This document shows positions 2,369 to 63,444 of a stretch of 63,444 bases of DNA, piece by piece. The translations under genes were made by a program, and so were the position numbers. The DNA is from a virus. Lineage: Duplodnaviria; Caudoviricetes. The stretch covers positions 1-63,444 of IMG/VR virus record IMGVR_UViG_3300044846_000637. The stretch is one strand, 5' to 3'. The number at the start of each line of letters is the position of its first letter. Positions within the stretch are counted from its first letter, which is position 1. The notes below the pieces were generated by a model. That model made no database searches. It worked only from the letters and a program-made list of their open reading frames with translations, and had not been told where the DNA came from.

Positions 2369-3584
2369 AGAACAACGAATCAAGAAGGGCCACATTGCCC
2401 TGATGAAACATCCCGAGACTGCGCTGTGGTCTGGGGTCATGATGATGGGCGCTACGTCTGTGATCGACGACCCGAGCGTGACAGCGTACACCGATGGTGT
2501 CAACAAGAAGTATGGCCGTAAGTTTCTCAGCACAGTGTGCAAAGACCAAGCCGAGGTCAATGGTCTCATCTTGCACGAGAACTTGCACATTGGTCTGCGC
2601 CACATGATCCACAGCATCGATCTGTTCAAGGCCGATAAGCAGATTGCGAACATGGCGGCTGACTATGTGGTCAACGACATTATCATGAACATCAAGGACA
2701 AGACCCTTGTTAAGTTACCAGAGGGCGGCTGTTACGACCCGAAGTATCACAACATGAACATGCGTGAGGTCTATCGCCTGTTGAAGAAAGACAAGGACGA
2801 GCGCAAAGGTAAAGGTTCAGGGGAGGGTGAAACGCAAGGTGATGACGATGGGTCGGGCGGTGGCGGGGGTGGTTACAAGTTCGACGACCACGACATCGAT
2901 GGAGAAGGTTCTGCACAAGGCGCAACGCAAGAGGAAGCGAAAGCCTTGGATGCGCGTATCGACAGAGCTATCCGTGAAGGCGCGTTACTCGCGGGGCGTC
3001 TTGGTATCGATCTGCCCCGGTCCATCACAGAGTTGCTTGAGCCAAAGATTGACTGGCGTGAGGTACTGCGTGAGTTCGTGTCAGCGGCTACCAAAGGCAA
3101 GGACGAGTACACATGGCGCAGGTTCAACCGCAGGGTGATTGCCAATGATATGTATCTGCCGACTGTGGAGAACGAGACCATCGGAGAGATTATCGTTGCC
3201 ATCGACACATCAGGTTCTATCGGGGAGAAGGAGCTTAACGAGTTCGCTTCAGAACTGGTATCAATCTGTGAGTCTGTGTCGCCCGAAGCTGTGCGCGTTC
3301 TGTGGTGGGACACCATGGTTCACGGTGAACAAGTCTTTACAGACAACTACGCCAATATCGGCGCGATGCTCAAGCCCAAGGGTGGCGGCGGTACTAGGGT
3401 TTCATGTGTCAGTGAATACCTAAACAAGAACAAGGTCAACGCTGAGTGCGTGTTGGTCTTCACCGATGGCTATCTTGAGAGCGATGTCAAGTGGTCAATC
3501 ACTGCCCCGACTCTGTGGATGGTTACAGAGAACAAAAGCTGGACCCCGCCAGTAGGTAAAAAAGTTTTTATGGAGAAAATGTAA
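2358..3584 (+). CDS. DUF2201-type metallopeptidase + VWA domain protein
   Basis: HExxH (ILHENLH), Gly/acidic linker, MIDAS DTSGS, GGGGT and FTDG motifs. Confidence 0.88.
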   Translation: MLTEEQRIKKGHIALMKHPETALWSGVMMMGATSVIDDPSVTAYTDGVNKKYGRKFLSTVCKDQAEVNGLILHENLHIGLRHMIHSIDLFKADKQIANMAADYVVNDIIMNIKDKTLVKLPEGGCYDPKYHNMNMREVYRLLKKDKDERKGKGSGEGETQGDDDGSGGGGGGYKFDDHDIDGEGSAQGATQEEAKALDARIDRAIREGALLAGRLGIDLPRSITELLEPKIDWREVLREFVSAATKGKDEYTWRRFNRRVIANDMYLPTVENETIGEIIVAIDTSGSIGEKELNEFASELVSICESVSPEAVRVLWWDTMVHGEQVFTDNYANIGAMLKPKGGGGTRVSCVSEYLNKNKVNAECVLVFTDGYLESDVKWSITAPTLWMVTENKSWTPPVGKKVFMEKM

Positions 3585-13490: not shown

Positions 13491-13906
13491 TCATCAACAA
13501 CACGGAAGAACTGGTATCAGATTACCTAGAGATTCGCAGACTACGCGAGTCACTCAAGGCCAATTATGATTCTCAAGACGAAGAGCTTAAAAACGCGATG
13601 GACTCAATTAAAGAAGCGCTTTTAGCCATCTGTAACGAGAACAACCAGAGTGGATTCAAGACAACAAGCGGCACTGTCACGCGACAGGTCAAGGAAAGAT
13701 ATTTTTGCACTGACTGGGACAACTTCAGAAAGTTCGTTGAGAGCGAAGGCTCCATTGATCTTCTTGAGCGCCGTATCCATCAGCGCAACTTCAAAGAATT
13801 TATGAACGAGAGATCAGGCGATGGCTTGCCTCCCGGCGTAAATGCCCTGCGTGAATTTGACATAGTCGTGCGCAAGGCTTCTTCAACCAGTGAAACTTCA
13901 GTTTAA
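13487..13906 (+). CDS. Hypothetical replication-module protein (coiled coil)
   Basis: Coiled-coil N-terminus, DWDNF...LLERRI...PPGV; lies between helicase and SSB-like gene. Confidence 0.75.
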   Translation: MIINNTEELVSDYLEIRRLRESLKANYDSQDEELKNAMDSIKEALLAICNENNQSGFKTTSGTVTRQVKERYFCTDWDNFRKFVESEGSIDLLERRIHQRNFKEFMNERSGDGLPPGVNALREFDIVVRKASSTSETSV

Positions 13907-18046: not shown

Positions 18047-18248
18047 ACCCGCGCCAGTAGACGAGCCTGAGTGGGTGTTCCCCTACGAATTTATGAACGT
18101 AGGGGACAGTTTCTTTATACCCACAATGCGCCCGTCCCATATGGTCTACATCATCGACGTAACCTCAAAGAAAGTTAAAGTCAAGATGAAGGCGTACCCT
18201 AGCCACAAAGACAATGTTCTTGGGGTTAGGGCGTGGCGTATCAGTTAG
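18027..18248 (+). CDS. Small conserved DNA-binding-like protein
   Basis: FPYEFMNVGDSFFIP...GVRAWRI pattern. Confidence 0.7.
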   Translation: MSKKPIEPAPVDEPEWVFPYEFMNVGDSFFIPTMRPSHMVYIIDVTSKKVKVKMKAYPSHKDNVLGVRAWRIS

Positions 18249-21200
18249 GGCTTAACTTCGTACGCCTCAAACATGTTCAAGAGGTTGCGTTTTACAAGGT
18301 TCTGCGCCTGAACAGTGTTTTTCACAAGCTCACTACGCTCTTTAGGTGTCAGCCCTTGCATGCGGCGGTAGACGTTTGCTTGTTCCCGCAGGTCGCGTAG
18401 TGTCCCGTTGACTTGTTTGTCGTACGAATTAACCAACGCTATATGCAGGGGGTTGTCTTCTACGTAATCAACGTACCGGTCGGGGCTTTTGGCCTTAAGC
18501 GAGTTAAGTCTTTTCTTTATGTCCAAAATTTTATTCTCAACATTTGAGAACTCACGAGCGTCTATGTTGGACGGAGCGCCAAAGAAGCTATCAAACATAA
18601 CAGTGTCGGTCTTTGGATTGAACTCTTTGTCCCCCGCAGCTACCATACCAATGTTCATTGCGCCAGCGCCCAGACGGGATACGCCATCCAGATAGTTGTT
18701 AGCAAAGAAATAAAGCGTATTTGGGCTTATGTCGATACCACCAGTCGTGGCTTCATACAACGCGCGTGCCGCAGACTTATACATTTCAGGGATGTTGTCA
18801 CCCCCTGTGTACGCATCACCAAATCGTGACTGACGGTTGTTGTAAATCTCACGGCCCAGACCATCCAAGTTCATAGTCCACTCAAGGAAGGGGCGCAAAA
18901 CGCTCGGCAATGCTGAGTCCATCAACCACGCGGCTGGCTGATCCATAGGATTGATACGCGAGACAGGCAAAGGCAGGAACGAGTCCATGCCAATAAGTGC
19001 CGTGTTAGTCAGCGCATCTTTTATAGATGTATTACCCATGCCGACAGAAGCCATTTGCGCCCCCGCCGCTGCAAACGCACCAAGACCAAAGCCCCAAGGC
19101 ATCTGGAATATGACATCCTTACCCAGTATTTCAAAATGGAATCGTGCGTAGCGCGACCAACGCGATGCGTCATCAGTAGCCACTTTGTTGCGCCCTTGAT
19201 CGTCATCGTCAGCCAACATGTAGGCCATACCATAGATCGCTGCCCCCATACCCAACAACCCCAGAGTCATAGCTTTAGCAGCATCGTGCTGTTTCTTGTA
19301 CTCGGCTTTGAATTTCTTTACAGCTTCTTTGTCATTACGCACACTCAAAGGCAGATCGGCCATTGCTGATTCTTCGCCACGGAACATAGGTTCCAACGCC
19401 TCAACCGCGCGAACAGCGCCAGTAGCAGCGGGCCGGAAGAACATGAACATTGCACCAGCAGCGCGGCCCCACTCGCCCACTTGTTCAAAGTTAGCCAGAT
19501 TCTTTGCGTAGCCAGCGGCTTTCTTAGACGCCTCACTCGCGCTCATACCTTGCGCCGTGAACTGCGACTTAGTGATCTCATACGCAGCAGTACGGCTAGC
19601 CAATTCAAACATGTCGTTCCAGATGTCTAGAACCTTATTGACAGCAGCCCCGGCCTTTTGCAGCTTGTTGCTAGAAAGATCGCGCTGAAGTTCTTGCTGT
19701 TGCGACTTGGAAGAGATTCCCTGCAAGTACGACACCTTACCGCCGATTTGGATGTACTCGTACATCGCGGCGATATATGGGTCCTTCTTGGCCAGACGTG
19801 CGATCTCGTCAAACTTACCAGTCTCATACAGACGGGCAACCTTTAGAGCCTTGAACATGCCACCGTTTACCACTTTGGCAGCAACAGCACCAATGTATTG
19901 CGCAGCAACTTTGGGCCCCATTTCAGCGCCCAACATAAAGGCGTTGGTCAGCGCATCGCGCACAAAGTTCATTGGAGCAAATGCCACGTTGTAGCGCGTG
20001 TGCATCTGACCCATCTTGCTAGTCAACCAGTTCAGCCCGTCAATCAACGGTTGAGAATCTTGATAAGTGCGCTTGATAGCTTCGCGCTGGTCTCTGTCGC
20101 TCAACTGAATGACATCAATCGTGCCGTCCGGGTTGTAATGGAACACAAAGTTTGGGCCGGTTATCGGTACTTCGTTGTTGTCGATCTTGACCGTCATGTT
20201 TGGAATACGCTGGCGGTCTGCAAACGGGATGTTTTTAGCCACCACGGAGCCATACAACAGCTTGTCTTCAACCGCATTCATGATGGACAGAGTTACGTCC
20301 TTGCGTCCAGCACGCATGGCGGCTCGCGTGGCATCCACCATAGACTGAATCAAAGAGTTATCGGCCTCAGTCTCACGACCTTCAAACGGATTCTGGGATT
20401 CCTGATAGTCCTTACCGGTGCGGGGGCCGCTGAAATCCAACAGCTCGTCATTTTTTCCAATGTAGTGTTGTCTACCTTTAAGGGGGATGTAGTTTTCCCA
20501 GCCATAAAAGTCCACAACGCTTTGCACAGGCTTAGACCAGTAGTTGGATTCTTTATCCAACTCACGCGTGGCTTTATGTAGCCCTTGCATCGCCTTCATT
20601 GCAGCGTCTACTACGCCTTTGACTTCTGGGGTGTAAAGGTCTTTTTTAAGTTGCTCAATCACTGCGGGGGAGTGTTCACCTACTACGTTGTAATCTTTGG
20701 AGTCGCGGTCAACAGATGTATAGCCGCTTGGTTCAGCGCCGTTGATACCCGAAAAACCCGTGGGGTCAGCGTACTTGGCCACAACATCGTTCAGCGTAGT
20801 ACGTAATTCTTTGATCTGACTTACGTTCAGCTTACCAGAGAAGACGGCGTCCATTGCGCGAATACGGAACTCAGAAGGAGCAATGTTAAGAGTAGTGCCC
20901 CCCGGCAGTGTGATGGCTTGCTTGTCTTTGTTCAGCGGTACATTGAGCATGTACTTCACATCACGGCGCTCACCCTCGTGCATCGCCATTCCAATGACGT
21001 GCAAGTCACGCGCGGCTTCCTCAATCGTTTTGCCTGTTTTCTTTGCGTAGTCATTGATTGCTTCGCGCAGTTTGGCAGCGGACGGCTCAACACGAGTAAG
21101 GAATAAATCTCGCGCAATACCAGAAGACCGCACGATTGAGTTGTAGACCGCGTTTATTTTTGGGCCGTCAAAAATAACCTTACCGGCACGCACGGCAGCG

Positions 21201-24200
21201 TCTTCAAGACGTTTGATAGCGTCACGGCTGTTCTGAAACTTCTTCTTAAGAAGGTTGTACGCTTTGCGAGTCGTGTATTGTTCCCGAATCTTAGAGACCG
21301 TGGACAGCGTAGGTAGCGCGTTACTCTTAAGAACGTCTTCAGTAGTCGAAGATAAATCTTCCGCTTTTTTCCGTTGCTGTTTTGCAGGTAGTGGGGCGCG
21401 TTCAATCCGTTCTGTGGACGGAGTGGCGATTGACTCAAACGCTTGAAAGATTTCAAGCAACGCACTGCGCGCTTCGTAGTTGGTTTTCTGTCCCTGAAAC
21501 ATCTTATTGGTCAGGCCAAGGACGCCAAGCACGCTGTTCATAAATTCAGACCATGCTGATTTTATTTCAGGCAGGATCGTCGGCAAGGTAACTATCTTGT
21601 TCCCTTGTTTAGCGTCTAATTTGACGTTATCCAAAGCTTCTTGGAAAAATTTATCTGTCAACGCATAAGACACAAACTCAAGCAAGTTTTCAAACGCATC
21701 GGGGTAGCTGTCCCCCAACGTGTCACTTGCGCGGTCCATCAAATCCTCAAGCATCTCAGCAGCTTCGATCTGTGCCTCAGTCAACCCTTTGAGGTTGCCC
21801 TTCTCATACTGGTCGAGCACTTTGACGGTAGCGGCGTGCACAAACTCGTGCAGCAGAATCGCATCGGTTAGACCTTCTGCCGTTACATAGATAGTGTCGG
21901 TCTTAGGGTCGTACTCAGCAAGACGACCTTTAGGCAGATTTTCTACGTACTCAATTTTGGTCTTCAGCTTAAGGTTAAAAATTACTTGCGCAATTGCACG
22001 CTGCAACTTGTTCTTAGCTTGCGTACGCAGGTAGTTCAGCACGTTCTCAGTGTTACCAGCTTTGACTTGTTTAGCCGCCTCGCTAGGTATAAATGCGTCA
22101 CGCTTGATGCGTTCAACGGGAGAGGTAGGGCCATCTCCTTCTTCCGCCTTACGTTGATTTTGTTTACGCTGCTCTTGCGCCGCTGCAATTTCGTTTTGAG
22201 CTTTCTCGTAGGACTTGAGCTCAGTCTCTTGCAGCGCGGATTTTTCGTCTGTTCTTTGCGCACCCCTACGTTCACTGATTGAACGCGCTAGATTGCCAAA
22301 CGCCGCGTCAATGTTCTCTACAGTAGGGTCGATGGTCTTGCCGTTCTTCTTACGGTACTTCAGGTCTTGTTTAAACTTAGCTTTTTCATCGGCAGTAAGT
22401 TCAGAGTATGGTGGCAGTGACAAGCCTGTCTTTTTGTTGTACGCAGTGCGCTGTGTCTCGTAGAGACCTTCTTCACGGTTGCCTTTTACTTCGCCAGTTG
22501 ATGTACGCTCTTTTCTAGCGGTGTAGCGATTCAACGCTTCCAGCGCTTTTTGACGCCCCAACGGAGTAATTTGACCAAGCTCGTTGGTGGTCAGATTATC
22601 AAGGTACACACGCTTCTGATCAGCAGTCAGCCGGTCCCACTCACGCAACTGCTCACGCTTTGCATTCAGTGCGTCAAGCGTTGCCTTCAACTGCGCCGCG
22701 CGTTCGGCTTCTGGCACTACATCTGTATCTTGCTCGCGCTTGAGCACGCTGTCTGAGTCAACGCCGTTGCGCTCCAGCATCTCTTCAAGTGCGCCAAGCT
22801 TCTCGCCTTCCCAGCCGAACTGTGGCGACAAGTTACCCTTCTCGGCTTCTTCAATGAAGTTTTGCGCGTCGTCATCGTAGACAACGGTTTTGCGTTCTTC
22901 ATTAAACTTCTCACCAATCCGTTTTTCAGTTTCAGCAAGTTGAGCATCTATTTCGTCTTGCTGGATGTCACGCAGATCAATCCCCAACGCTTCAGCTTGT
23001 ACCTTGCGTTTGTTAAGAAGTTCTTGGCGCGGCTCAGTTATTGTTGTTCCGGTTGCTGCTTGCGGTTTTTTCGGTTTTGTTTCGACGGTTTCAGCGGTTT
23101 TAGTGCCACTTGTGGTCTCCGTTGGTTGGATTATTGCAGGGGTTGTTGATCCTTCTCCCGTAGCAGACACTGTAGCATCCGTTCCAGTAGAAACCACTCC
23201 ATCTCGTTTAAGTGTTTCAGTTCCTGCGGTGGTGGAAAGTTCGTCGGCTGTAGGTGCAGATATTGCAGCGCCGACTCCATCTGCGTCTGTGTCAGGTCCT
23301 GTAACATCTTCTTCTCCGGTAGGAGGTGCTTGGGTGAGCGCATCGATCTGTGCTTTTACTTTCTTTTGCTTTTGCCTTTTATTGTTCAGCAAGCCCCGCT
23401 CTTTGTTAGTCAAGCTAACACCACGAGCCTCCATCTCTTTGATTTCAGCTTCGCGTTTGTCGTAGTCAGCCTGCAACGCTTCCGCGTCTGGGCTAGTTTG
23501 TGGTGCGGGCTTGTCAGCAAAAAGATCGGCAAGAGAAGTAATGGCAGTTTCTTGTTCTTGGGTAGGGGTAGTCGTCTGATCTTGTTGCTGAGTAGTGTCA
23601 GTCGTCTGATCAACGCTAGTTTGGATATCTCTTGTAGGAGCGCGACCAGCCAGCAAACCAGCGCCACCACCCATACCAGCAGCGCCCAACGTGGCCATGG
23701 CAGCAGTTTGGCCCGTACCTGCCAGTAATTCGCGGTCGAGGCCAGCTTGCTGAGCAGCAACGTTTTGCGCAACGCGCCCGCCAACCTCTTCAATGTTCTC
23801 GCCGGGAATTTCTTTGAGACCAGTTACAACGCCTGTACCGATGCGGCCACCAGTAATCTTCTTACCAGCCAGAATTTCTTCCAATGCTTTACCACCGGGT
23901 AGGAATCTGTTGGCCAAGACAGACAGACCATATCCCGCTACACCCGCAGCCCGCGCCTTGTTAATAGTCTCTGCCGCTGCGCGTTCAGGAGACATCCCCG
24001 AGTCTGTAAGTTCTTTGAAAATTTCGTCGTATGCACCAGCACCTACATCAGCACCCTGCATTACAGCGCCAGTCTGAATAGCAGCGGTAGTACCAGCCTT
24101 GACAGCCTTCTGGGTAGCCAAACGCTTAGCAGCTTCTTCCGCTGCACCGCGCGCAGCGGCTGCGCTCATCACGCCCCGCTTGGCGATATAGCCAGCACCG

Positions 24201-24673
24201 CCGCCAGCCAAAATCATTGGTATGAGTTGAGGTACTTGTTCTGCGAGGAAGCTAGTGAGCAAAGCTGGGTCTGTAATTGTTTCTCCGAGGGCGGCCTTGA
24301 ACGCAGCAAACTGACCTTCTTTTTCGGCTTCTTCCACCTTTGTGGTACGAGCAGCTTCACGGGCCTTCAGACCCTTAGACTTCATTTCTTCACCGTATTT
24401 GGTGATGTCTTCCCCGAGACCCAATGAGCCAGTCTTAGAGAAATCGCCCGTGGCTAGACCGTAGAGCTGCCCCGGCAGTTGAACAAGGCTACCAACACCA
24501 GAAACGATGCCAGCACCAACGTCTTTAAAGGCTTCGCCAGTTGTACGTTCTGTAGACGGGGCCTGCGCTACGCTTTGCCTATGCGTGTAGTTTGCCCACT
24601 GCCAAGCTGTGTTGGGGTCCGGAGCGTCTACTTCGTATGTTTTACCACCAACATCTACTTCGTATGTGGGCAT
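18245..24673 (-). CDS. Large polyvalent internal virion protein (zincin MPTase-like + C-terminal LPD38-like)
   Basis: 2142 aa; LAEYDP..DTIYV...LLHEFVHAAT...EFVSYA zincin motif; Gly/Ala-rich N-terminus; C-terminal region resembles LPD38; last gene of the structural arm. Confidence 0.75.
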   Translation of the reverse strand: MPTYEVDVGGKTYEVDAPDPNTAWQWANYTHRQSVAQAPSTERTTGEAFKDVGAGIVSGVGSLVQLPGQLYGLATGDFSKTGSLGLGEDITKYGEEMKSKGLKAREAARTTKVEEAEKEGQFAAFKAALGETITDPALLTSFLAEQVPQLIPMILAGGGAGYIAKRGVMSAAAARGAAEEAAKRLATQKAVKAGTTAAIQTGAVMQGADVGAGAYDEIFKELTDSGMSPERAAAETINKARAAGVAGYGLSVLANRFLPGGKALEEILAGKKITGGRIGTGVVTGLKEIPGENIEEVGGRVAQNVAAQQAGLDRELLAGTGQTAAMATLGAAGMGGGAGLLAGRAPTRDIQTSVDQTTDTTQQQDQTTTPTQEQETAITSLADLFADKPAPQTSPDAEALQADYDKREAEIKEMEARGVSLTNKERGLLNNKRQKQKKVKAQIDALTQAPPTGEEDVTGPDTDADGVGAAISAPTADELSTTAGTETLKRDGVVSTGTDATVSATGEGSTTPAIIQPTETTSGTKTAETVETKPKKPQAATGTTITEPRQELLNKRKVQAEALGIDLRDIQQDEIDAQLAETEKRIGEKFNEERKTVVYDDDAQNFIEEAEKGNLSPQFGWEGEKLGALEEMLERNGVDSDSVLKREQDTDVVPEAERAAQLKATLDALNAKREQLREWDRLTADQKRVYLDNLTTNELGQITPLGRQKALEALNRYTARKERTSTGEVKGNREEGLYETQRTAYNKKTGLSLPPYSELTADEKAKFKQDLKYRKKNGKTIDPTVENIDAAFGNLARSISERRGAQRTDEKSALQETELKSYEKAQNEIAAAQEQRKQNQRKAEEGDGPTSPVERIKRDAFIPSEAAKQVKAGNTENVLNYLRTQAKNKLQRAIAQVIFNLKLKTKIEYVENLPKGRLAEYDPKTDTIYVTAEGLTDAILLHEFVHAATVKVLDQYEKGNLKGLTEAQIEAAEMLEDLMDRASDTLGDSYPDAFENLLEFVSYALTDKFFQEALDNVKLDAKQGNKIVTLPTILPEIKSAWSEFMNSVLGVLGLTNKMFQGQKTNYEARSALLEIFQAFESIATPSTERIERAPLPAKQQRKKAEDLSSTTEDVLKSNALPTLSTVSKIREQYTTRKAYNLLKKKFQNSRDAIKRLEDAAVRAGKVIFDGPKINAVYNSIVRSSGIARDLFLTRVEPSAAKLREAINDYAKKTGKTIEEAARDLHVIGMAMHEGERRDVKYMLNVPLNKDKQAITLPGGTTLNIAPSEFRIRAMDAVFSGKLNVSQIKELRTTLNDVVAKYADPTGFSGINGAEPSGYTSVDRDSKDYNVVGEHSPAVIEQLKKDLYTPEVKGVVDAAMKAMQGLHKATRELDKESNYWSKPVQSVVDFYGWENYIPLKGRQHYIGKNDELLDFSGPRTGKDYQESQNPFEGRETEADNSLIQSMVDATRAAMRAGRKDVTLSIMNAVEDKLLYGSVVAKNIPFADRQRIPNMTVKIDNNEVPITGPNFVFHYNPDGTIDVIQLSDRDQREAIKRTYQDSQPLIDGLNWLTSKMGQMHTRYNVAFAPMNFVRDALTNAFMLGAEMGPKVAAQYIGAVAAKVVNGGMFKALKVARLYETGKFDEIARLAKKDPYIAAMYEYIQIGGKVSYLQGISSKSQQQELQRDLSSNKLQKAGAAVNKVLDIWNDMFELASRTAAYEITKSQFTAQGMSASEASKKAAGYAKNLANFEQVGEWGRAAGAMFMFFRPAATGAVRAVEALEPMFRGEESAMADLPLSVRNDKEAVKKFKAEYKKQHDAAKAMTLGLLGMGAAIYGMAYMLADDDDQGRNKVATDDASRWSRYARFHFEILGKDVIFQMPWGFGLGAFAAAGAQMASVGMGNTSIKDALTNTALIGMDSFLPLPVSRINPMDQPAAWLMDSALPSVLRPFLEWTMNLDGLGREIYNNRQSRFGDAYTGGDNIPEMYKSAARALYEATTGGIDISPNTLYFFANNYLDGVSRLGAGAMNIGMVAAGDKEFNPKTDTVMFDSFFGAPSNIDAREFSNVENKILDIKKRLNSLKAKSPDRYVDYVEDNPLHIALVNSYDKQVNGTLRDLREQANVYRRMQGLTPKERSELVKNTVQAQNLVKRNLLNMFEAYEVKP

Positions 24674-56047: not shown

Positions 56048-57556
56048 TTAGTAGAAAGCGGCTCTTCTATGTGATTTGAAGAGCGGAATTGGTTCCGGCT
56101 CATCGCTCGGCAACCTCAAAAACCCGCCTTGCCTAAAACGCAAAAGCGCTTGTGTCGTAGAGTCAACGAGGTCGTCGTTAGTGCCGCTGGGGAAGTCATT
56201 GCATTCCTCAATAACTTCTCTAGCCCACCTGCGATCCGGTGCCCACACTATGCCAGATGCCAAAAGGTCAGACACTGCGTTCACACGCGATATTTTGTCC
56301 TGTCCTTTGCCCGGAGTAAACTCCCCTACCGGGACGCCCATCCGCCGAAGCTCCTGATACAGCGCAGAACCGTTGGATTTCTTTTCTACGATGAACGCAT
56401 CTGGCTCCCACTCCTTGTACTCTTCCAGTACAAGCTTCTTCAGGTCAGGAAACTCTAGCCGTCTCTTGATTGCGTTCAACAATATGATGTTGAAGTTGCT
56501 TGTTTCTTCGTTAAAGAACACGCCCCAAGTCGTCAGGGCGTTGTAGTCAGCACGGTTGTTGGATTCTTGTGCGGCGTCCAACGACATGATCGTAAACTCG
56601 CAGTCCGGCGGGTCATCTTTATCCCACACCTGCCACCACTCCCTTTTAAGCAGCGCACCCTCTTCCGATACGGGATTCTGCATGTACTGGGCCTGCCAGT
56701 ACCGTGGGTCCATACCTGCTTTTTTAGACAGTAGTTCTTCCAACGACCAAAAGTCCGACCAAAGCGGTTTATCGTTCAAAATGGCGGGGAATTCCACTAC
56801 TTCCCACGGCTCAACGCCCTCTTCCTTCTGCATCTGGTTGATTACCATGCCCGTCAGGTCTAATTTGGACCAACGAGTCATAACCATAATAATCGCGCCA
56901 CCCGGCATAAGACGCTGCAAAGGACCAGACTGGAACCACTCCCAAGCAGGAAGAAATACATCGGGCCTTCCGGTTTTGGCATCCTGCTCAGAGTGAGGAT
57001 CGTCAATAATAAATAGGTCAGCACCCCGGCCTGCAAGAGCGCCTCCGACACCAATTGCAAAGTATTCGCCATCGAAGTTTGTACCCCATCTTGATGCAGA
57101 TTTAGAGTCAGACTGAAGCTCAATCTGGGGAAAAATGTCTCTGTAGGACTCACTACCGACCAGATTTCGCACTCTACGACCGAAGTTCACTGCCAAATCA
57201 GCAGTGTGGGAGGCCATGATGACCTTTTTATGAGGGTATTTACCTAGAAACCACGCAGGAGCGAGGTAACTGATCATCTCCGACTTGCCATGTCGGGGTG
57301 CAATGTTCACTACGACCCGTTTTTTCTTGCCAGCAGCGATCTCTTCAAAGATTTTGGCAAGCCTGCGGTGGTGCGGACCCACTTTATAGCCCGGATATAC
57401 GTGGTCAATGAACGTCAGGAAGTTGTCTTTGCCCAATTCTTGGGCTTTTTGGGCATACCAAGTCTTGATAAGCTCCAAAGTACGGCGTTTTTGATTCTCC
57501 CCCATCTGGGGAAGCGCCTGTTCAAGCTCCTGAATGTGTTCAATCGTCAATTTCAT
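56048..57556 (-). CDS. terL: Terminase large subunit
   Basis: APRHGKS, IIDDPH, MTRW, AQYMQNP, RNase H-like SLD..., IVEKKSNG, NDDLVDS. Confidence 0.95.
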   Translation of the reverse strand: MKLTIEHIQELEQALPQMGENQKRRTLELIKTWYAQKAQELGKDNFLTFIDHVYPGYKVGPHHRRLAKIFEEIAAGKKKRVVVNIAPRHGKSEMISYLAPAWFLGKYPHKKVIMASHTADLAVNFGRRVRNLVGSESYRDIFPQIELQSDSKSASRWGTNFDGEYFAIGVGGALAGRGADLFIIDDPHSEQDAKTGRPDVFLPAWEWFQSGPLQRLMPGGAIIMVMTRWSKLDLTGMVINQMQKEEGVEPWEVVEFPAILNDKPLWSDFWSLEELLSKKAGMDPRYWQAQYMQNPVSEEGALLKREWWQVWDKDDPPDCEFTIMSLDAAQESNNRADYNALTTWGVFFNEETSNFNIILLNAIKRRLEFPDLKKLVLEEYKEWEPDAFIVEKKSNGSALYQELRRMGVPVGEFTPGKGQDKISRVNAVSDLLASGIVWAPDRRWAREVIEECNDFPSGTNDDLVDSTTQALLRFRQGGFLRLPSDEPEPIPLFKSHRRAAFY

Positions 57557-58130
57557 CGGGTAGCTTCTCGATTTCTTTGACTTGCACATCCATCACGGGC
57601 TGATGGGACAGATTTGTGATGCGTTTTAACTTGCTTAGCGTATCTGCCAGCTCGTTTTCCACCTCTTCAATGGACTGCATCTTTACAGTCACTTCGGTGC
57701 GCTTCTTAAAAGCATCAACGCCGTCAACATCACCTAGAGCCTTGATCGCCTGCATCCTAACTTTGCCGTCAGGGTGCTCTGATTCTTGCAGTAGCTTATT
57801 TACAACATACAGCTTCAGGTCAGCAAGGTCACGCACAACCATACCGCTGTACATAGCCACCATACCACCAAGATAGGCAAGAGTCTCATTTGGGTATTGA
57901 GTTAGATCGGGTGGGGTTTTGTTTGCCACGACCTGCTCCATGAGTTCATGCGCTTGGGCACGATTCTCTTCGGTGGGGTCTAAGGGTTTACCCGTAAGGT
58001 CTGAGATCAACTTGACGGTACGAGCCCGCATTTCGATCTCTTCTTTGGGGGAAAGTTCAGGCATAGCCTCGGCCAGATTGGCAGGCAGCGGAACATCCCA
58101 GTCAATGTCAGGCATCAGTGGTTCAGTCAT
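57540..58130 (-). CDS. Putative terminase small subunit
   Basis: First gene of the late arm, overlaps terL, RMQAIKALG..GVDAF helix motif. Confidence 0.6.
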   Translation of the reverse strand: MTEPLMPDIDWDVPLPANLAEAMPELSPKEEIEMRARTVKLISDLTGKPLDPTEENRAQAHELMEQVVANKTPPDLTQYPNETLAYLGGMVAMYSGMVVRDLADLKLYVVNKLLQESEHPDGKVRMQAIKALGDVDGVDAFKKRTEVTVKMQSIEEVENELADTLSKLKRITNLSHQPVMDVQVKEIEKLPDEIDD

Positions 58131-58263: not shown

Positions 58264-58433
58264 GGAGGTAAGGAATCCTACCGGGGGGTGTTCCTATATT
58301 AGGGGGGTGGGGGTCGGTTGTCTGGGAAATTTGAAAAAACGTGGGCTATTTGTGCAAGTCTTAGTGTATAGGGAGCGGGGGAGTCCCAACGCGGATTTGG
58401 GGGGTCGGGGTGCGGTGGGGTCTGACCCCGCCA

Positions 58434-58467
58434 AAACTTTACAAATGCTTAGGGGTTGTGGCATAAC
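58434..58467 (+). promoter_or_regulatory. Cassette promoter 1 (AAACTTTACA class)
   Basis: TTTACA-N18-CATAAC; aligns with the elements at 59142 and 59967. Confidence 0.55.
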
Positions 58468-58511
58468 AGAACCATGCAGAGCAATAGTGCAATGCATAAC
58501 TGGAGAAACAA

Positions 58512-58700
58512 ATGAAAGCAATCAAGACAGCTTGGCTGTGGCTTACACAGTACATGGTTTGCGTCAAGTGGGACGGCATCGAGACAATCCACTGGGCCAA
58601 GACCGAAACGGAAGCGCGAGAGTGGATGGCCTGCTACGGCGTAGCAGACACATGTGTCTACGGCAAGCGCGGCAAGTTGCTGGGCGGTCGCTCAGCTTAA
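58512..58700 (+). CDS. Small early protein
   Basis: GGAG RBS; followed by a cUUCGg hairpin at 58706-58721. Confidence 0.7.
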   Translation: MKAIKTAWLWLTQYMVCVKWDGIETIHWAKTETEAREWMACYGVADTCVYGKRGKLLGGRSA

Positions 58701-58739
58701 CCAACGGGGGCTTCGGCCCCCACTTCAATGGAGAATGAA

Positions 58740-59030
58740 ATGCAACAGTTAGAGTTGTTTCCCCTCAACCTGCTTGAACAAGCAGCCCGTCAATCAAGAG
58801 CCGCGTCTCTGCAAGAGATGTTGTGCAAAGTGAACGACGCCCATGCTGAGTATGTCAGCCGATTCGACGGTATGTATGCTGACCATGTAATCTTCACAGA
58901 CGGCGACACACCAACCTTCACGATCATCCCTGAGTTCTGGCCTGACTTGGCTAGTGACTACATGAATGACGCGCATCCTACGGTTTATTACCAAGTCTGT
59001 GAAGGCATCGACGATAGCTTTGCTAACTAA
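58740..59030 (+). CDS. Acidic early protein
   Basis: GGAG RBS 6 nt upstream; ends at a terminator. Confidence 0.7.
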   Translation: MQQLELFPLNLLEQAARQSRAASLQEMLCKVNDAHAEYVSRFDGMYADHVIFTDGDTPTFTIIPEFWPDLASDYMNDAHPTVYYQVCEGIDDSFAN

Positions 59031-59058
59031 GAAAGGGGCCAATCGGCCCCTTTCTTTT
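59029..59058 (+). terminator. Rho-independent terminator (possibly bidirectional)
   Basis: AAGAAAGGGGCC-AATC-GGCCCCTTTCTT. Confidence 0.85.
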
Positions 59059-59064
59059 ACGCCT

Positions 59065-59096
59065 TTGATACCAGTTATTTGTCGCCGCGTGCGTGG
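59065..59096 (+). repeat. Cassette-junction motif, copy 1
   Basis: TTGATACCAGTTATTTGTCGCCGCGTGCGTGG. Confidence 0.9.
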
Positions 59097-59141
59097 AAGC
59101 GCGAGTGGCTGGCGCGTAACTTAGCTTTGCAGTCCCCGCTG

Positions 59142-59175
59142 AAACTTTACATTATGGTCTAGGGTCAGCTATAAC
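59142..59175 (+). promoter_or_regulatory. Cassette promoter 2
   Basis: AAACTTTACA, TTTACA-N18-TATAAC. Confidence 0.6.
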
Positions 59176-59236
59176 TTAATCACTGGGCGGCAATTCTGTT
59201 GTTCAGTTTTTTGTAACTTAACTTGGAGTCTTTCAA

Positions 59237-59842
59237 ATGAAAGCAACAAAGTCTCAGGGTCCATCGACCCTTTCGGTGTCTAGTCTCAAAGACGCTGGCT
59301 ATCAGTCAGCTATCAGCGGTGAACGTATGGACACTGTTGCACGCTTCGTGTTCGCTGAATGCCCCGGCTTCACTTCTGATGTGCCAAAAGAAGTGCTGGC
59401 TAGTCTGTCTGAAGGTTGGGCACTTCGCTGGCAAGAAATCAACCCTGCAAAGAAGTACACGACAGATTATGTGCCTTCTGACACTGGCAACATCGAAGTC
59501 AGTCTGGCTTTCTGTCTGTCCTATAGTCAGCAAGCCTTCGGTCAAATGAAGAATGAAGACCCGGTGAAACACTCGCTGATCAAAGGTGTTCGAGATGCCT
59601 TCAGCAAGTATCGTTCAAACCGTTTGTCTGATCTGAAGACAGCCGTTCGTAGGATTGAACGTGAGGGCGAATCGAAAACAAAGAATCCTACAAAGGGTTT
59701 CTCTGACTTCATCACCGACACTTTCACTAACATGAAAGCCAGATGTAAGACAGCCAGCGCACGCGGGGATGCTGAAGCCAGCGAAGTAAATCTGGCTGTT
59801 GCAATCGACGCCTTCAAGCGTGCTTATCACCGCGCTGATTAA
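59237..59842 (+). CDS. Unknown early protein, paralog A
   Basis: GGAG RBS; colinear with 60046-60624 (KDAGYQ, ALRWQE, SYSQQAFGQ, RCKTA.ARGD). Confidence 0.85.
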   Translation: MKATKSQGPSTLSVSSLKDAGYQSAISGERMDTVARFVFAECPGFTSDVPKEVLASLSEGWALRWQEINPAKKYTTDYVPSDTGNIEVSLAFCLSYSQQAFGQMKNEDPVKHSLIKGVRDAFSKYRSNRLSDLKTAVRRIEREGESKTKNPTKGFSDFITDTFTNMKARCKTASARGDAEASEVNLAVAIDAFKRAYHRAD

Positions 59843-59857
59843 TCAGCCGTACCAACT

Positions 59858-59884
59858 GAAGGGGCCTTGTGCCCCTTCTTTTTT
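59858..59884 (+). terminator. Rho-independent terminator
   Basis: GAAGGGGC-CTTGT-GCCCCTTC followed by T6. Confidence 0.85.
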
Positions 59885-59889
59885 GGCCT

Positions 59890-59931
59890 TTGATACCAGT
59901 TATATGTCTCCGCGCGTGTATGCGTGCGTGG
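59890..59931 (+). repeat. Cassette-junction motif, copy 2
   Basis: TTGATACCAGTTATATGTCTCCGCGCGTGTATGCGTGCGTGG. Confidence 0.9.
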
Positions 59932-59959
59932 TCAAGCGCATCGATCACCGATTCAGCAT

Positions 59960-60000
59960 CCCGTGAAAACTTTACTTATGGGCTTGGGTGTGGCAAAAGA
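59960..60000 (+). promoter_or_regulatory. Cassette promoter 3 (degenerate -10)
   Basis: CCCGTGAAAACTTTACTTATG...GTGGCAAAAG aligns with promoters 1 and 2. Confidence 0.45.
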
Positions 60001-60045
60001 ACATTACCGGATGACGTTTTGATTGTCCGGATTTTGGAGTTTCTT

Positions 60046-60624
60046 ATGAAAAAGCACAGCACAGTTGCATCCTTCAAGGATGCGGGTTACCAAGCCGCCA
60101 AGCATGGCGAAGGTATGGCGCAAGTCGCACGTTTTGTTCTTGATGAGTGCCCATCATTCCTTGATGGTGTACCCGATGAGGTCAAGGCTCAACTGCGTGA
60201 GGGTCAAGCATTACGTTGGCAAGAACTTAATCCCGCCATTCGGTACACAGCCGATTGGATTCCATCTAAGGACGGCGGGACTGAGGTTTCGTTGGCGTAT
60301 TGCATGAGCTACTCTCAACAAGCATTTGGGCAGCTCAAGAATGAGCACCCAATACAGCACAGCATCATCAAGGGTGTGAGGGATAAGTTCAACAAGTATT
60401 CATCCAACGTCATGGGTGATCTCACCAGAGCGGTTCGCAGGCTCATGTCTGAGGGCCAAGACAAAACCAAGTCCGCTACCAAGAACTACACAGAGTTCCT
60501 CAGTGATATGTTTGATTCATGCAAATCACGATGCAAAACAGCCCATGCCCGTGGTGACACATCCGCACCTAATGAGGTTGCACTGCGCCAAGCAATTGAT
60601 GCATTCTATGCACAGTTGAAGTAA
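60046..60624 (+). CDS. Unknown early protein, paralog B
   Basis: Start MKKHST after GGAG; paralog of 59237-59842. Confidence 0.85.
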   Translation: MKKHSTVASFKDAGYQAAKHGEGMAQVARFVLDECPSFLDGVPDEVKAQLREGQALRWQELNPAIRYTADWIPSKDGGTEVSLAYCMSYSQQAFGQLKNEHPIQHSIIKGVRDKFNKYSSNVMGDLTRAVRRLMSEGQDKTKSATKNYTEFLSDMFDSCKSRCKTAHARGDTSAPNEVALRQAIDAFYAQLK

Positions 60625-60630
60625 CCACAC

Positions 60631-60665
60631 AGCCCCACCAGTCGCAAGATTGGTGGGGCTTTTTT
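60631..60665 (+). terminator. Rho-independent terminator
   Basis: AGCCCCACCAGTC-GCAA-GATTGGTGGGGCT followed by a T run. Confidence 0.9.
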
Positions 60666-60673
60666 GTGGCCCG

Positions 60674-60711
60674 TTGATACCAGTTATATGTCTCCGCGCG
60701 TGTGTGCGTGG
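60674..60711 (+). repeat. Cassette-junction motif, copy 3
   Basis: TTGATACCAGTTATATGTCTCCGCGCGTGTGTGCGTGG. Confidence 0.9.
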
Positions 60712-60749
60712 GCTAGGCGATGACTTAGCGTTTCACGGGTAGGTGAAAT

Positions 60750-61340
60750 TATTCCAAGATTCCAACCCTGTTTGGAACTGGAACGAGCTAATTGGAATTT
60801 TGGAATCAGGGCAAAACTTACAGAAAACTGGAATTTTTGCGTTTTAATGTAAAGTGGGCCTATATGTAAAGTAAAATTGGAATCGACTTTCTTCAATGAA
60901 ATCAAGTACTTACGAGGCAAAATTCCAAAATTCCAAAATTCCAATGGAATTTTAGTGGGGAGGAAACTTACAAAGTGATTTTGCAAAACCGGGATCGTTG
61001 AAGAGGCTCAGCAAGTGCGATGTCCAACAACGTCTGATTGAGTTGGGCAAAGTTTGGCTAAGTTCGCGCATATCCCCCCAAAGGCAGGCCCCTATTCAAA
61101 ACGCTTGGAATCTTGGAATTTTGGAATAACTCAAAAATATATATCTATATATACTACTACTACTACTACTACTTAGTCTTTTCTTACCGTAAAAAGTATT
61201 CATTTCCACTTTCACCCCTACACACCAAAAAATTCCAACAAAACACCCGTTTTGGAACCAATTCCACCTTTTTTACCTAACTTTACATTACCCCCTTTCG
61301 CCACACCCCCAAAACCACGCCGCAACCAAGTTATCCACAC
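60750..61340. other. Candidate replication origin (TGGAA/TTCCA repeats, AT-rich tract, DnaA box)
   Basis: About 19 TGGAA/TTCCA copies in both orientations, TA-rich tract 61133-61153, (TAC)7 at 61152-61172, TTATCCACA at 61331-61339; no credible ORF. Confidence 0.55.
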
Positions 61341-61377
61341 CCCAAGCTTCTGCCTCAACTACTTTTGCCCAAGAGTA

Positions 61378-61406
61378 TTGTATAATATGTAAAGTTATGG
61401 TATAAT
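61378..61406 (+). promoter_or_regulatory. Strong sigma70-like promoter (copy A)
   Basis: TTGTAT-N17-TATAAT with extended TG; spacer contains ATGTAAAGT. Confidence 0.8.
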
Positions 61407-61411
61407 TGAAT

Positions 61412-61470
61412 TCTGGTTGGGGGAGAAGCCAGACAACACCGTTACTTACCGTTTCACCTCCCCGTGAAAC
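61412..61470 (+). ncRNA. Two-hairpin 5' leader (copy A)
   Basis: TCTGGTT-GGGGGAGA-AGCCAGA and GTTTCAC-CTCCCC-GTGAAAC; the loops are complementary. Confidence 0.45.
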
Positions 61471-61484
61471 ATCTGGAGAAAATC

Positions 61485-61886: not shown

Positions 61887-62045
61887 ATGGCAAAGAAAAT
61901 TACATTCAAAGAGGTGCCTGTCGGCACATCGTTCATCAGCAACGGGAACATCTGCACCAAGCTGTCATTGCGCACAGCGGTGCTTGTCCAGTACATGAGG
62001 ACGTTCTATTTCAGCAAGGACGAGTTGGTTGAGGTCGTGTCCTGA
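61887..62045 (+). CDS. 52-aa hypothetical protein (not in ORF track)
   Basis: MAKKITFKEVPVGTSFISNG..., AGGAG RBS. Confidence 0.7.
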   Translation: MAKKITFKEVPVGTSFISNGNICTKLSLRTAVLVQYMRTFYFSKDELVEVVS

Positions 62046-62069
62046 CCCAACTATTTCACCCCAAAGCTA

Positions 62070-62098
62070 TTGTACAATATGTAAAGTTGTGCTATAAT
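62070..62098 (+). promoter_or_regulatory. Strong sigma70-like promoter (copy B)
   Basis: TTGTAC-N17-TATAAT with extended TG; near-identical to 61378-61406. Confidence 0.8.
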
Positions 62099-62100
62099 AG

Positions 62101-62162
62101 AGTCTGTGGTCGGGGAGCGAGTACGTAAGCCGATCACTCAGCGTTTCACCACCCCGTGAAAC
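62101..62162 (+). ncRNA. Two-hairpin 5' leader (copy B)
   Basis: GTGGTCGG/CCGATCAC stem and GTTTCAC-CACCCC-GTGAAAC. Confidence 0.4.
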
Positions 62163-62197
62163 TTAGTTCATTCAGTTCATTCAGTAAGGAGTCCATC

Positions 62198-62536
62198 ATG
62201 GGCGCAGTCAAGACCGTATATACAGCATTGCTCGAGGCCGAGGCCAACGGGCACATCCACCCAACCATCGCACAAGCAATACGCGCGATGCAACCCCCAC
62301 CCGCACCGACTGACGTTTCACCCACCCCTGAAACGATGCCGACCTATGTCTATGCGCTGTACACAGATGGCGTGTTGCTTGATCTGTACATGTATCGCGA
62401 GACGGCGGACTACGAGTGCTACCTCTGCCGTATGGGTGAGGAGCAGTTCCGTGTCTACGACGAGGACGGAGACTTCCGCCGATACGAAGTGCGCGAGCTT
62501 ACTGTTCACACGCACAAGCCACACAACGCACGCTGA
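62198..62536 (+). CDS. Hypothetical early protein
   Basis: AAGGAG RBS before MGAVK. Confidence 0.7.
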   Translation: MGAVKTVYTALLEAEANGHIHPTIAQAIRAMQPPPAPTDVSPTPETMPTYVYALYTDGVLLDLYMYRETADYECYLCRMGEEQFRVYDEDGDFRRYEVRELTVHTHKPHNAR

Positions 62537-62759: not shown

Positions 62760-63004
62760 TGCAAGACCGATGCAACGAAGATTACGAAGCGGGATTGAAA
62801 GCTGGCAAGCAGATAGTCATCCTCGCCAAAGAAGTGTATGGCAGACAGATGTTCTATCCCGTATGTGATACGTCACGCCTGTTCGCCGCTATTGCTGACC
62901 GAGCCACCCTGTCTGAGGTAAACGTCAGACGGATACGACAACTTGGGTACGAGGTGACAGTCACCCACCCCAAGCCAATCAACATCGATTTCACCAACCC
63001 CTGA
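62756..63004 (+). CDS. Hypothetical protein
   Basis: ATGA-coupled; KEVYGRQMFYPVC...LGYEV. Confidence 0.65.
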   Translation: MMQDRCNEDYEAGLKAGKQIVILAKEVYGRQMFYPVCDTSRLFAAIADRATLSEVNVRRIRQLGYEVTVTHPKPINIDFTNP

Positions 63005-63020
63005 ACTACTGGAGAGAGCC

Positions 63021-63444
63021 ATGAACTTTGAACTCAACCAACCCAACCACTTGATCTCGCTTGCAACGTCAGCGCTGATTGTCTCTGTGGATGTGAATGT
63101 GTGGACTGCGACCAAGCAAGACCGCACCATATCCAACGAGGTGACCGCATCCAAGAACGCATCCGCTGATGCGGGTAAGTTCACTAAGAACTTGCTCAGC
63201 TCATCGCCCGACCACAAGGCGCTGCTCAACTATCGGCAGACGGTCTATAACTGGCTTCAGCGTTCGACGTACGACTGGGCTGGTTCCATGCGGCTGTTGC
63301 CAATCATCAACCTTGAACGGTTCAAGAAAGAGTACGAGCAACACGAGAAAGAGTTTGATGACTTGTTGGAGAAGTTCATCATTGCATACCCACAGATCAT
63401 CAGCGATGCGGCGTTCAAGCAAGGCGAGATGTTTGATCGTTCAG
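63021..63444 (+). CDS. 5' part of DUF3150-like protein (continues at 1-532)
   Basis: ATG 63021 after GGAG; open to the window end and in frame with 32..532 across the 47-bp overlap. Confidence 0.75.
   Translation, partial: MNFELNQPNHLISLATSALIVSVDVNVWTATKQDRTISNEVTASKNASADAGKFTKNLLSSSPDHKALLNYRQTVYNWLQRSTYDWAGSMRLLPIINLERFKKEYEQHEKEFDDLLEKFIIAYPQIISDAAFKQGEMFDRS
63398..63444. repeat. Terminal direct repeat / assembly overlap (copy 2)
   Basis: Matches 1-47 with one mismatch. Confidence 0.95.

Follow-up and report, generated by a model that had tools for sequence, protein, structure and literature searches.

A near-invariant 30-base motif at the 5′ border of early control modules in a clade of lake phages

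In T4-like phages, the elements called PeSLs, each combining a terminator with a σ70-like early promoter, are described as cassettes bordering positions at which ORFans have been replaced (PMC2839356; PMC4122927), and the conservation of these repeats is ascribed to the promoter and the stem-loop themselves (PMC2839356). In the halovirus HF2, AT-rich intergenic repeats of 29 and 58 bp are described that are tied to gene starts and themselves carry promoters (PMC8707807). Here, we report the analysis of a 30-base non-coding motif, termed M, in the early region of the IMG/VR virus record IMGVR_UViG_3300044846_000637 (Duplodnaviria; Caudoviricetes), the whole of which (63,444 bp) was analysed and is referred to as the window. 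The existence, conservation, orientation and position of M, its bracketing of a family of early genes termed c3 and the enrichment of mosaic joints at it were all obtained from the sequence. As judged from these comparisons, M is a strand-specific selected element under strong purifying selection that delimits, on the 5′ side, a composite early control module in a large clade of uncultured lake phages. It is not part of the terminator, of the promoter or of an operator-like repeat.

Among the systems compared, PeSLs appear to be the closest, the additions here being an extra conserved core motif, a single locus and a single gene family. As in the PeSLs described, a terminator and an early promoter (both predicted here) lie in one intergenic unit, between early ORFans and in one orientation, and both kinds of element mark the edges of segments that have been inserted, deleted or replaced between related phages. 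The differences are that the best-conserved piece here, M, lies between the stem-loop and the promoter, has a sharp edge and is nearly invariant across phages, and that it occurs in only two to four copies, at one locus and with one gene family, whereas mini-circles are a feature of the PeSLs as described. With the repeats described in HF2, M shares an intergenic position in a virus genome but differs in being separate from the promoter.

M has the consensus tTGAwACCAGTTATnTGTCnnCGCGCGnG. The corresponding IUPAC pattern matches the window exactly three times (59065–59094, 59890–59919 and 60674–60703), always on the plus strand, and nowhere else in the 63,444 bp; the chance expectation is 0, and 100 shuffles yielded no match. 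Between copies 2 and 3 all 30 positions agree, whereas copy 1 (TTGATACCAGTTATTTGTCGCCGCGTGCGT) differs at three of 30. Each copy starts 6–8 nt past the T-run of the preceding terminator, in agreement with an earlier sequence-only reading of this DNA, which had placed a conserved motif after each terminator at 59065, 59890 and 60674. The homology between the junctions reaches past the 30 bp at lower identity. No frame across M holds a consistent open reading frame (ORF), and third positions are no less fixed than the rest.

The same reading had proposed a motif search in metagenome contigs. The 19-nt core TTGATACCAGTTATNTGTC was found exactly in at least 118 IMG/VR contigs, and every core match listed has the same setting, in which a stem-loop precedes M and a GC-rich tract, then an AT-rich box, an inverted repeat and finally promoter boxes or iterons follow it. 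With up to four mismatches allowed, 118 loci (1.04 Mb) hold 259 matches (141, 52, 24, 19 and 23 with 0, 1, 2, 3 and 4 mismatches, respectively), with one copy in 28 loci, two in 44, three in 41 and four in five. The copies within a locus all lie on the same strand. Opposite-strand matches occur in two loci only, with four mismatches, and in the one locus checked (L103) the match falls inside the gene of c8, a conserved early protein. In the window, three 12-mers one base off the M core lie on the minus strand, antisense within genes (3251–3262, 13507–13518 and 63247–63258; 0.32 expected window-wide); the one antisense in c8 encodes the conserved peptide YNWLQ, and similar antisense matches are found in L090 and L103 (confirmed within c8 in L103).

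Conservation ends sharply at position 1 of M. In 110 instances sharing less than 80% identity over 280 nt, positions 22–29 (CGCG.G), which were not searched with, are also conserved (G23 1.00, C22 0.94 and G25 0.94). Anchoring bias was removed by searching with a c3 protein alignment instead of M; in the logo of 123 non-redundant instances from the loci found in this way, A4, C8, A9, G10, T11, T12 and T18 are invariant. In blastn alignments of 198 loci with the window, coverage at the three M modules peaks at 168, 162 and 145 loci, compared with about 160 for the terminase genes, about 90–110 for the c3 genes and about five for the gene just 5′ of the first M, and no other DNA of the early region can be aligned as widely as these modules. 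Between the window and the loci, the median protein identity is 83% (minimum 73%) for TerL, the best-conserved protein tested, 72% for the c8 N-terminus, 59% for the protein at the TerS position and 39% for c3; among the loci themselves, the medians are 53% for c8, 39% for the early protein c13 and 34% for c3. Across the clade, packaging genes are thus fairly tightly conserved and early genes loosely. The sequence-only reading had held the motif to be better conserved than the terminators, promoters and genes around it, and to be a selected element and not a by-product of tandem duplication. Both claims stand, M being near-invariant in relatives in which the flanking genes are unrelated or share 34–39% identity.

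Outside this clade M was hardly seen. In 50,697 phage records, no match to the 3-kb region was found with blastn, a 34-nt form of the motif gave only 17-nt chance matches in Bacteroides phages, and tblastn with c3, c13 and the c8 N-terminus gave none, so that co-occurrence cannot single out a binder. A 23-nt M pattern searched in 185,579 bacterial genomes (32.2 million contigs) matched one contig only. This 1.9-kb contig (L122), binned in a Bacteroidetes metagenome-assembled genome (MAG), carries two M copies 897 bp apart; most likely it is a stray piece of phage DNA in that bin, and it is not evidence of a host. The letters of M, on both strands, are absent from the searchable literature apart from a single text match in unrelated human-genetics work. 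Compared by eye with known sites, M fits none of the IHF, DnaA box, FNR/CRP, LexA, Fur, σ54, dif and parS sites or the CTTGATA nick site of phiX174 and pC194; such comparisons serve as leads and not as tests.

The module consists, in order, of a preceding stem-loop or terminator, M, a CG/TG tract, an AT-rich box with a genome-specific inverted repeat and, at the end, a σ70-type promoter that would drive c3 (or the early genes c9 or c88); after the last M, an iteron and AT-rich region takes the place of the promoter. A stem-loop lies within 50 nt upstream of M in 279 of 291 distinct instances, compared with 87 of 291 random positions, and stems of at least seven pairs in 256 compared with 39. 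The gap between stem and M is bimodal: 52 of these 256 stems abut M, and the remaining gaps are mostly 10–24 nt, with a peak at 17–18 nt. The sequence of the stem-loop itself is not conserved. Directly 3′ of M is a tract of alternating pyrimidines and purines (CG/TG), in which the median longest run is 10, compared with a mean of 5.9 in GC-matched controls, and runs of at least 12 are found in 31% of the M instances and in 0% of the control windows. A TATTTAG-like AT-rich box follows, with an inverted repeat that has arms of 5–8 bp and a spacer of 4–8 bp. The arms vary by genome (TTTCAC/GTGAAA, GTTCAAC/GTTGAAC, CCCACG/CGTGGG, ATCGGA/TCCGAT and others), but in the multi-module loci compared (e.g. 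L013, L027, L040, L048, L065, L073 and L103) the same arms are found in all modules.

In the source genome, this box and repeat (ACTTAGCG-TTTCAC-N6-GTGAAAC) is present in seven copies, at 59119–59147, 59944–59968, 60720–60748, 61444–61472, 62136–62164, 62299–62333 and 62972–63006. Three lie upstream of a −35 box or of the iterons; elsewhere the element is found just before a ribosome-binding site (61444 and 62972) or a gene start (62136), and the copy at 62299–62333 was not placed. The recurrence away from M marks it as a separate, operator-like element, and from its sequence it looks like the operator of a genome-specific regulator. M and the inverted repeat are separated by a widely varying distance (59–87 nt and beyond) without a helical period, and the idea of M as a phased upstream activator was rejected on this spacing. 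Together with a last M copy that has no promoter and a first promoter that has no M, the broad, unphased spacing indicates that M is independent of the promoter.

It is highly unlikely that M acts as RNA, that is, as a processing or antitermination signal lying between a hairpin and a GU-rich hairpin and transcribed by read-through. Such a role would suit the 52 strong upstream stem-loops that abut M without a T-tract, the CG/TG tract, which pairs through G–U on the plus strand only, and the terminator-like hairpins of the c3 leaders. However, a full terminator precedes most M copies, RNAalifold of M with 45 downstream bases gave 0 consensus pairs over 40 diverse instances, the fold energies of M with its downstream bases showed no excess over shuffles (mean z −0.2) and no Rfam family matches M. 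Given the missing consensus fold and Rfam match, M was taken to act on DNA and not as a folded strand.

The early genes of the window start at about 58.4 kb and diverge from the terminase genes. The features that follow are on the plus strand. The first early promoter-like site (58434–58467; −35 TTTACA at 58438–58443, an 18-nt spacer and −10 CATAAC at 58462–58467), which has no M upstream, precedes the genes of unit 1 (58512–59030), ORFs of 62 aa (58512–58700) and roughly 96 aa (58740–59030). The latter is nearly unique to the source genome, with about five of 198 loci aligning over 58775–58975 and none found by tblastn. The unit is closed by a terminator-like stem-loop with a T-run (59032–59058), which was read from the sequence and was not called by the scanner. 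After M copy 1, an AT-rich box with the imperfect inverted repeat at 59119–59147 abuts promoter 2 (together 59119–59175; −35 TTTACA at 59146–59151 and −10 TATAAC at 59170–59175). The predicted transcript of the first c3 gene, c3a, starts with a stem-loop and T-run (59182–59207) called as terminator-like by the scanner; c3 leaders in relatives also open with a stable stem-loop of this kind, which may be an attenuator or a 5′ stabilizer. c3a (59237–59842) encodes a 201-aa all-helical ORFan early protein without a known fold or family and ends in a terminator called by the scanner (59858–59885; stem-loop 59858–59878). A sub-threshold Rfam match to the small RNA SorX over the c3a 3′ end and terminator (59809–59884; 26.5 bits, gathering threshold 46.6) is probably this hairpin. 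Beyond M copy 2, a box with an inverted repeat (TTCAG..GTGAA, 59952–59968) abuts promoter 3 (together 59934–59999; −35 TTTACT at 59971–59976 and a weak −10, CAAAAG, at 59994–59999). The paralog c3b (60046–60624), recognized by protein comparison, encodes 192 aa and is followed by a terminator called by the scanner (60631–60667; stem-loop 60631–60660) and by M copy 3. After this copy, a box with the inverted repeat GTTTCAC-GGGTAG-GTGAAA (60715–60748) has no promoter behind it.

A −35-like TTTAC(A/T) hexamer begins 51 nt beyond the end of M after both copy 1 and copy 2, and a σ70-like −35/−10 logo marks predicted promoters downstream of M in the relatives. None of the three promoters of the window was called by a simple σ70 scanner because the −10 boxes end in C or G (TATAAC, CATAAC and CAAAAG); they were accepted because the TTTAC-N17/18-(T/C)ATAA logo is conserved in relatives. 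The sequence-only reading had assigned a promoter of the same class to each unit. The shared sequence AAACTTTAC is indeed found exactly at 58434, 59142 and 59967, but as a 9-mer with up to one mismatch it occurs 15 times genome-wide compared with 13.2 expected, which is not above chance, and the scanner was silent. Similarly, that M always lies between a terminator and a promoter holds on its upstream side, where a stem-loop is the rule, and fails at the last M, which leads to iterons. Further downstream, a 76-nt direct repeat (61350–61425 and 62042–62117; 74% identity) holds TTGTATAAT and TGGTATAAT / TGCTATAAT boxes and is probably, from these boxes, a second promoter class with an extended −10, placed ahead of c13 and of the next gene.

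These promoters bear on whether M could itself be the promoter of an unrecognized RNA polymerase or σ-like factor, with transcripts that would reach c3 from M by way of the σ70 promoter and, from the last copy, enter the origin, comparable to the three N4 virion-polymerase early promoters or to T7 replication promoters. Phage N4 has three copies of its early promoter. Like the phage-polymerase promoters of the T7 type and of N4 early transcription, M is a conserved sense motif of 20–30 bp that follows terminators; its size is promoter-like, its 5′ half is AT-richer and precedes a GC-rich tract, and the last M has no other promoter before a 760-nt non-coding stretch. Contigs from an RNA library, in addition, cover the stretch from M to the gene start (59898–60071) and from M copy 3 to the iterons (60679–60857). 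DNA lying 5′ of the first promoter is likewise covered by the same contigs, which are interrupted at M in the way that DNA contigs are, so they may be DNA carry-over with assembly breaks; they show neither transcription nor transcript starts, and their uncovered parts carry no meaning. M lacks the promoter hairpin of the N4 type and has σ70-type promoters downstream of it. No phage RNA polymerase was detected: six-frame searches for σ region 2 gave 0 matches with positive controls, those for the T7-like polymerase PF00940 gave 0 matches with a control profile that was also silent in all genomes, and the proteins scanned include no polymerase-like family. The virion-type protein of 2142 aa encoded in the window has no PDB relative, and its sole D.D.D motif lies in a low-complexity stretch. 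The description of HTVC023P-type phages mentions neither promoters nor intergenic elements nor an RNA polymerase. We regard a promoter at M as very improbable.

The genes between the M copies belong largely to one family. c3a and c3b share 61% protein identity, while blastn aligns only short patches of 76–83%. In the loci found with c3, M lies within 400 nt upstream of the gene in 77 of 77 testable cases and within 200 nt downstream in 70 of 72; in the 37 c3 loci new to the first set, the counts are 35 of 35 upstream and 35 of 35 downstream. The 139 M-to-M intervals contain c3 in 105 cases, c9 in 12, c88 in three and sets of small genes in three; the rest have no called ORF, in part owing to closely spaced double M copies. 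There are one to three c3 copies per locus, and the elements follow each other in a stable order, which begins with variable small ORFans and continues with M, (c9), M, c3, M, (c3), M, iterons, c13 … c10 … c8. The variable part is the position directly upstream of the first M, which is occupied by 37 gene families.

The predicted structure of c3 is all-helical with a predicted local distance difference test score (pLDDT) of 90.8, and its isoelectric point is about 9; that of c8 has a pLDDT of 76.2. Foldseek found no match to either model at E ≤ 0.001 and VIA-align, used with the c3 model only, none at Z ≥ 8. In the Atlas search c3 returned viral hypothetical clusters only; the nearest named entry, a Streptomyces-phage repressor (0.76), was below lead level and was rejected. 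The early proteins c3, c7, c8, c9, c13, c16, c17 and c24 match no Pfam or PHROG family, and c10 has a weak DksA-like zinc-finger match only.

The integron-like array of cassettes put forward by the sequence-only reading is largely refuted, and site-specific recombination at M can now be considered barely credible. In common with integron attC sites, M copies are direct repeats that bracket single genes in a head-to-tail array, and joints are found at M. Unlike in an integron, no integrase or resolvase was found: six-frame searches of the complete record gave 0 matches to PF00589, for which the control matched in 14 of 14 genomes, and 0 matches to PF00239, with a positive control. Each unit has its own promoter-like boxes and terminator; M is asymmetric, without inverted-repeat character, an imperfect-palindrome fold or an attC-like fold; and content and order, for which the sequence-only reading had proposed a test of variation, are almost constant. 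That reading had also proposed to look for reordered cassettes in reads; in the contigs of four runs no M-to-M joint was found, with the limit that contigs drop rare forms.

Recombination was examined over all pairwise combinations of M instances, by comparing the 150 nt that precede M with the 150 nt that follow. The two sides are both alike in 60 pairs, the downstream side is alike and the upstream side unrelated in 36, and the reverse holds in one. The 37 discordant pairs compare with 0–17 at eight control offsets (ratio 0.62 compared with 0–0.31). In four pairs aligned in detail, homology resumes 0–23 nt before M, inside the stem-loop. Assemblies of the four runs are interrupted at the M copies, and M is the only part of the window that contigs of other phages match. 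Two contig joints listed have sides of less than 30 nt; one of them links c3a to c3b and probably derives from a relative with a single c3. The 5′ edge of M is a meeting point of unrelated genes and a conserved module, which fits a crossover at M, and these joints make a role as an exchange point plausible.

At the far end of this line of thought, M would be a homology patch only: a PeSL-like linker without a binder, homogenized by recombination, that shuffles early ORFans and changes the c3 copy number. The mosaic joints, the one to three c3 copies, the assembly breaks and the contigs that share M alone would follow, as would the rare M variants that are common to the copies of one genome (e.g. 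L028, L040, L097 and L073), and the PeSLs offer a described precedent (PMC2839356; PMC4122927). Homogenization alone, however, should not fix 19–29 specific bases where the flanks cannot be aligned, and would not yield a sharp 5′ edge with position-specific tolerance. The conservation of PeSLs, as described, is explained by the promoter and terminator consensus, and M is neither. In addition, the last M copies have variants of their own that recur across genomes, which points to selection on each copy. Linkage by homology without a binder is accordingly judged unlikely.

After the last M, iteron arrays of TTGGAAT/ATTCCAA in both orientations are followed by an AT-rich stretch and (TAC)6 (60749–61180; e.g. 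60791–60806, 60918–60945 and 61098–61129). The TTGGAAT repeats at 60749–61129 fit the layout of origin iterons, and from its repeats the region is a putative replication origin or regulatory array. In relatives, an origin-like layout likewise follows the last M with other repeat words (TGTTCCA, TGTTCTAC and TGTTCAA). The M copies themselves, 660–1120 bp apart, are unlike the closely spaced iterons of an origin. M may nevertheless be a replication element, either an auxiliary site for an initiator or primase-helicase (as crr is for phage P4) or a polar barrier that would stop forks from the iteron and AT-rich region from meeting the early units head-on, like Ter sites by some plasmid origins. 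Ter sites are asymmetric, present in several copies, uniformly oriented and outside genes. M shares these properties and, at roughly 23–30 bp, resembles the sites of Ter/Tus and RTP in layout only, beside a region that looks like an origin; here and in many relatives it is the last M that directly adjoins that region, and the genome encodes a DUF927 primase-helicase, a family A DNA polymerase and an SNF2 helicase. M has no sequence likeness to these sites and no Tus- or RTP-like protein was recognized. The iterons vary between genomes and M does not, and the origin assignment itself comes from sequence features. Furthermore, the near-absence of M from the bacterial genomes makes a host Ter-binding protein an unlikely reader. 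Taken together, we give a replication role only a small chance.

The source genome has a CheckV completeness of 100%. The record is classed as linear, but its termini overlap over 47 nt with one mismatch (63398–63444 and 1–47), and the genome therefore closes as a circle of about 63.4 kb; the gene of c8 (302 aa) spans the junction, starting at 63021 and ending at 532. Besides the replication proteins named above, a PD-(D/E)XK nuclease is encoded on the plus strand, and the minus strand encodes the 2142-aa polyvalent virion-type protein, tail and head proteins, the portal and TerL. The 2142-aa protein (18245–24673, minus strand) has Gly/Ala-rich and hydrophobic stretches, an HEFVH (HExxH) metalloprotease-like motif and an LPD38 domain, and from these features looks like an ejected polyvalent virion protein. 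By TerL, the closest named phages are DSL-LC04 (54% identity), a metagenome-assembled genome by its description, and the Pelagibacter phages HTVC023P and HTVC027P (48–49%); the terminase neighbourhood of DSL-LC04 is arranged differently from that of the source genome. DNA of the source genome is present in lake-water metagenomes.

About 0.9 kb, including the divergent control region, separates the first M from the start of the presumed TerS gene (57540–58130, minus strand), and M might be the recognition site of TerS, a pac-like packaging signal. Its asymmetry and direction would suit such a site, as would the conservation of TerL. No family match was obtained for the presumed TerS, which is conserved at only 59%, and the distance between M and TerS varies with the variable ORFans. 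Three copies 0.8 kb apart, each at a gene boundary, correspond to no known pac layout. A packaging role is considered very unlikely.

The reading that we favour, tentatively and with somewhat less than even confidence, is that M serves as a protein-binding boundary element of the early units and of the putative origin, and secondarily as a PeSL-like crossover point. Protein binding is thus preferred among the further options named in the sequence-only reading, of which a replication or injection signal is the less favoured. A conserved sequence-specific protein, encoded by the phage or delivered with the virion, would bind M as duplex DNA and, in the manner of a boundary or insulator, set the strongly transcribed early units apart from one another and mark off the putative origin. 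Since M is identical among the copies and among co-infecting relatives, homologous recombination at M could also swap the variable upstream ORFans and duplicate c3, a part that PeSLs play in T4-like phages. What we infer is that a protein binds M, which protein this would be and that it insulates; several points weigh against this. No binder was identified, and the c3 and c8 models neither show a DNA-binding fold nor match any other fold. For a phage regulator, it is unusual that an asymmetric site of 30 bp remains invariant when every protein nearby drifts. The site lies just past a terminator, in presumably untranscribed DNA, without an obvious regulatory logic, and phages are not known to use insulator or boundary proteins of this kind. 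The enrichment of joints could mean only that the conserved core starts at M. In a more specific form, M and the ORFan that it brackets would make up a site–gene–site module, in which c3 or another conserved early protein reads M and builds polar barriers that wall the early units off from the origin. This is rather improbable; if true, these phages would encode an insulator or fork-barrier system of a kind not previously described in phages.

The usual picture of an early region in an uncultured phage is a string of ORFans that cannot be aligned. In this clade, a non-coding element of 30 bp is more widely conserved than any gene around it, over more than 100 lake-phage contigs. M marks the early locus of the clade in metagenomes and anchors the comparison of hypervariable early genes, and it points to a step of DNA–protein recognition between early transcription and the likely origin. 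If M is also a crossover point, it would extend the shuffling of regulatory cassettes known from the PeSLs of T4-like myoviruses to an unrelated freshwater group.

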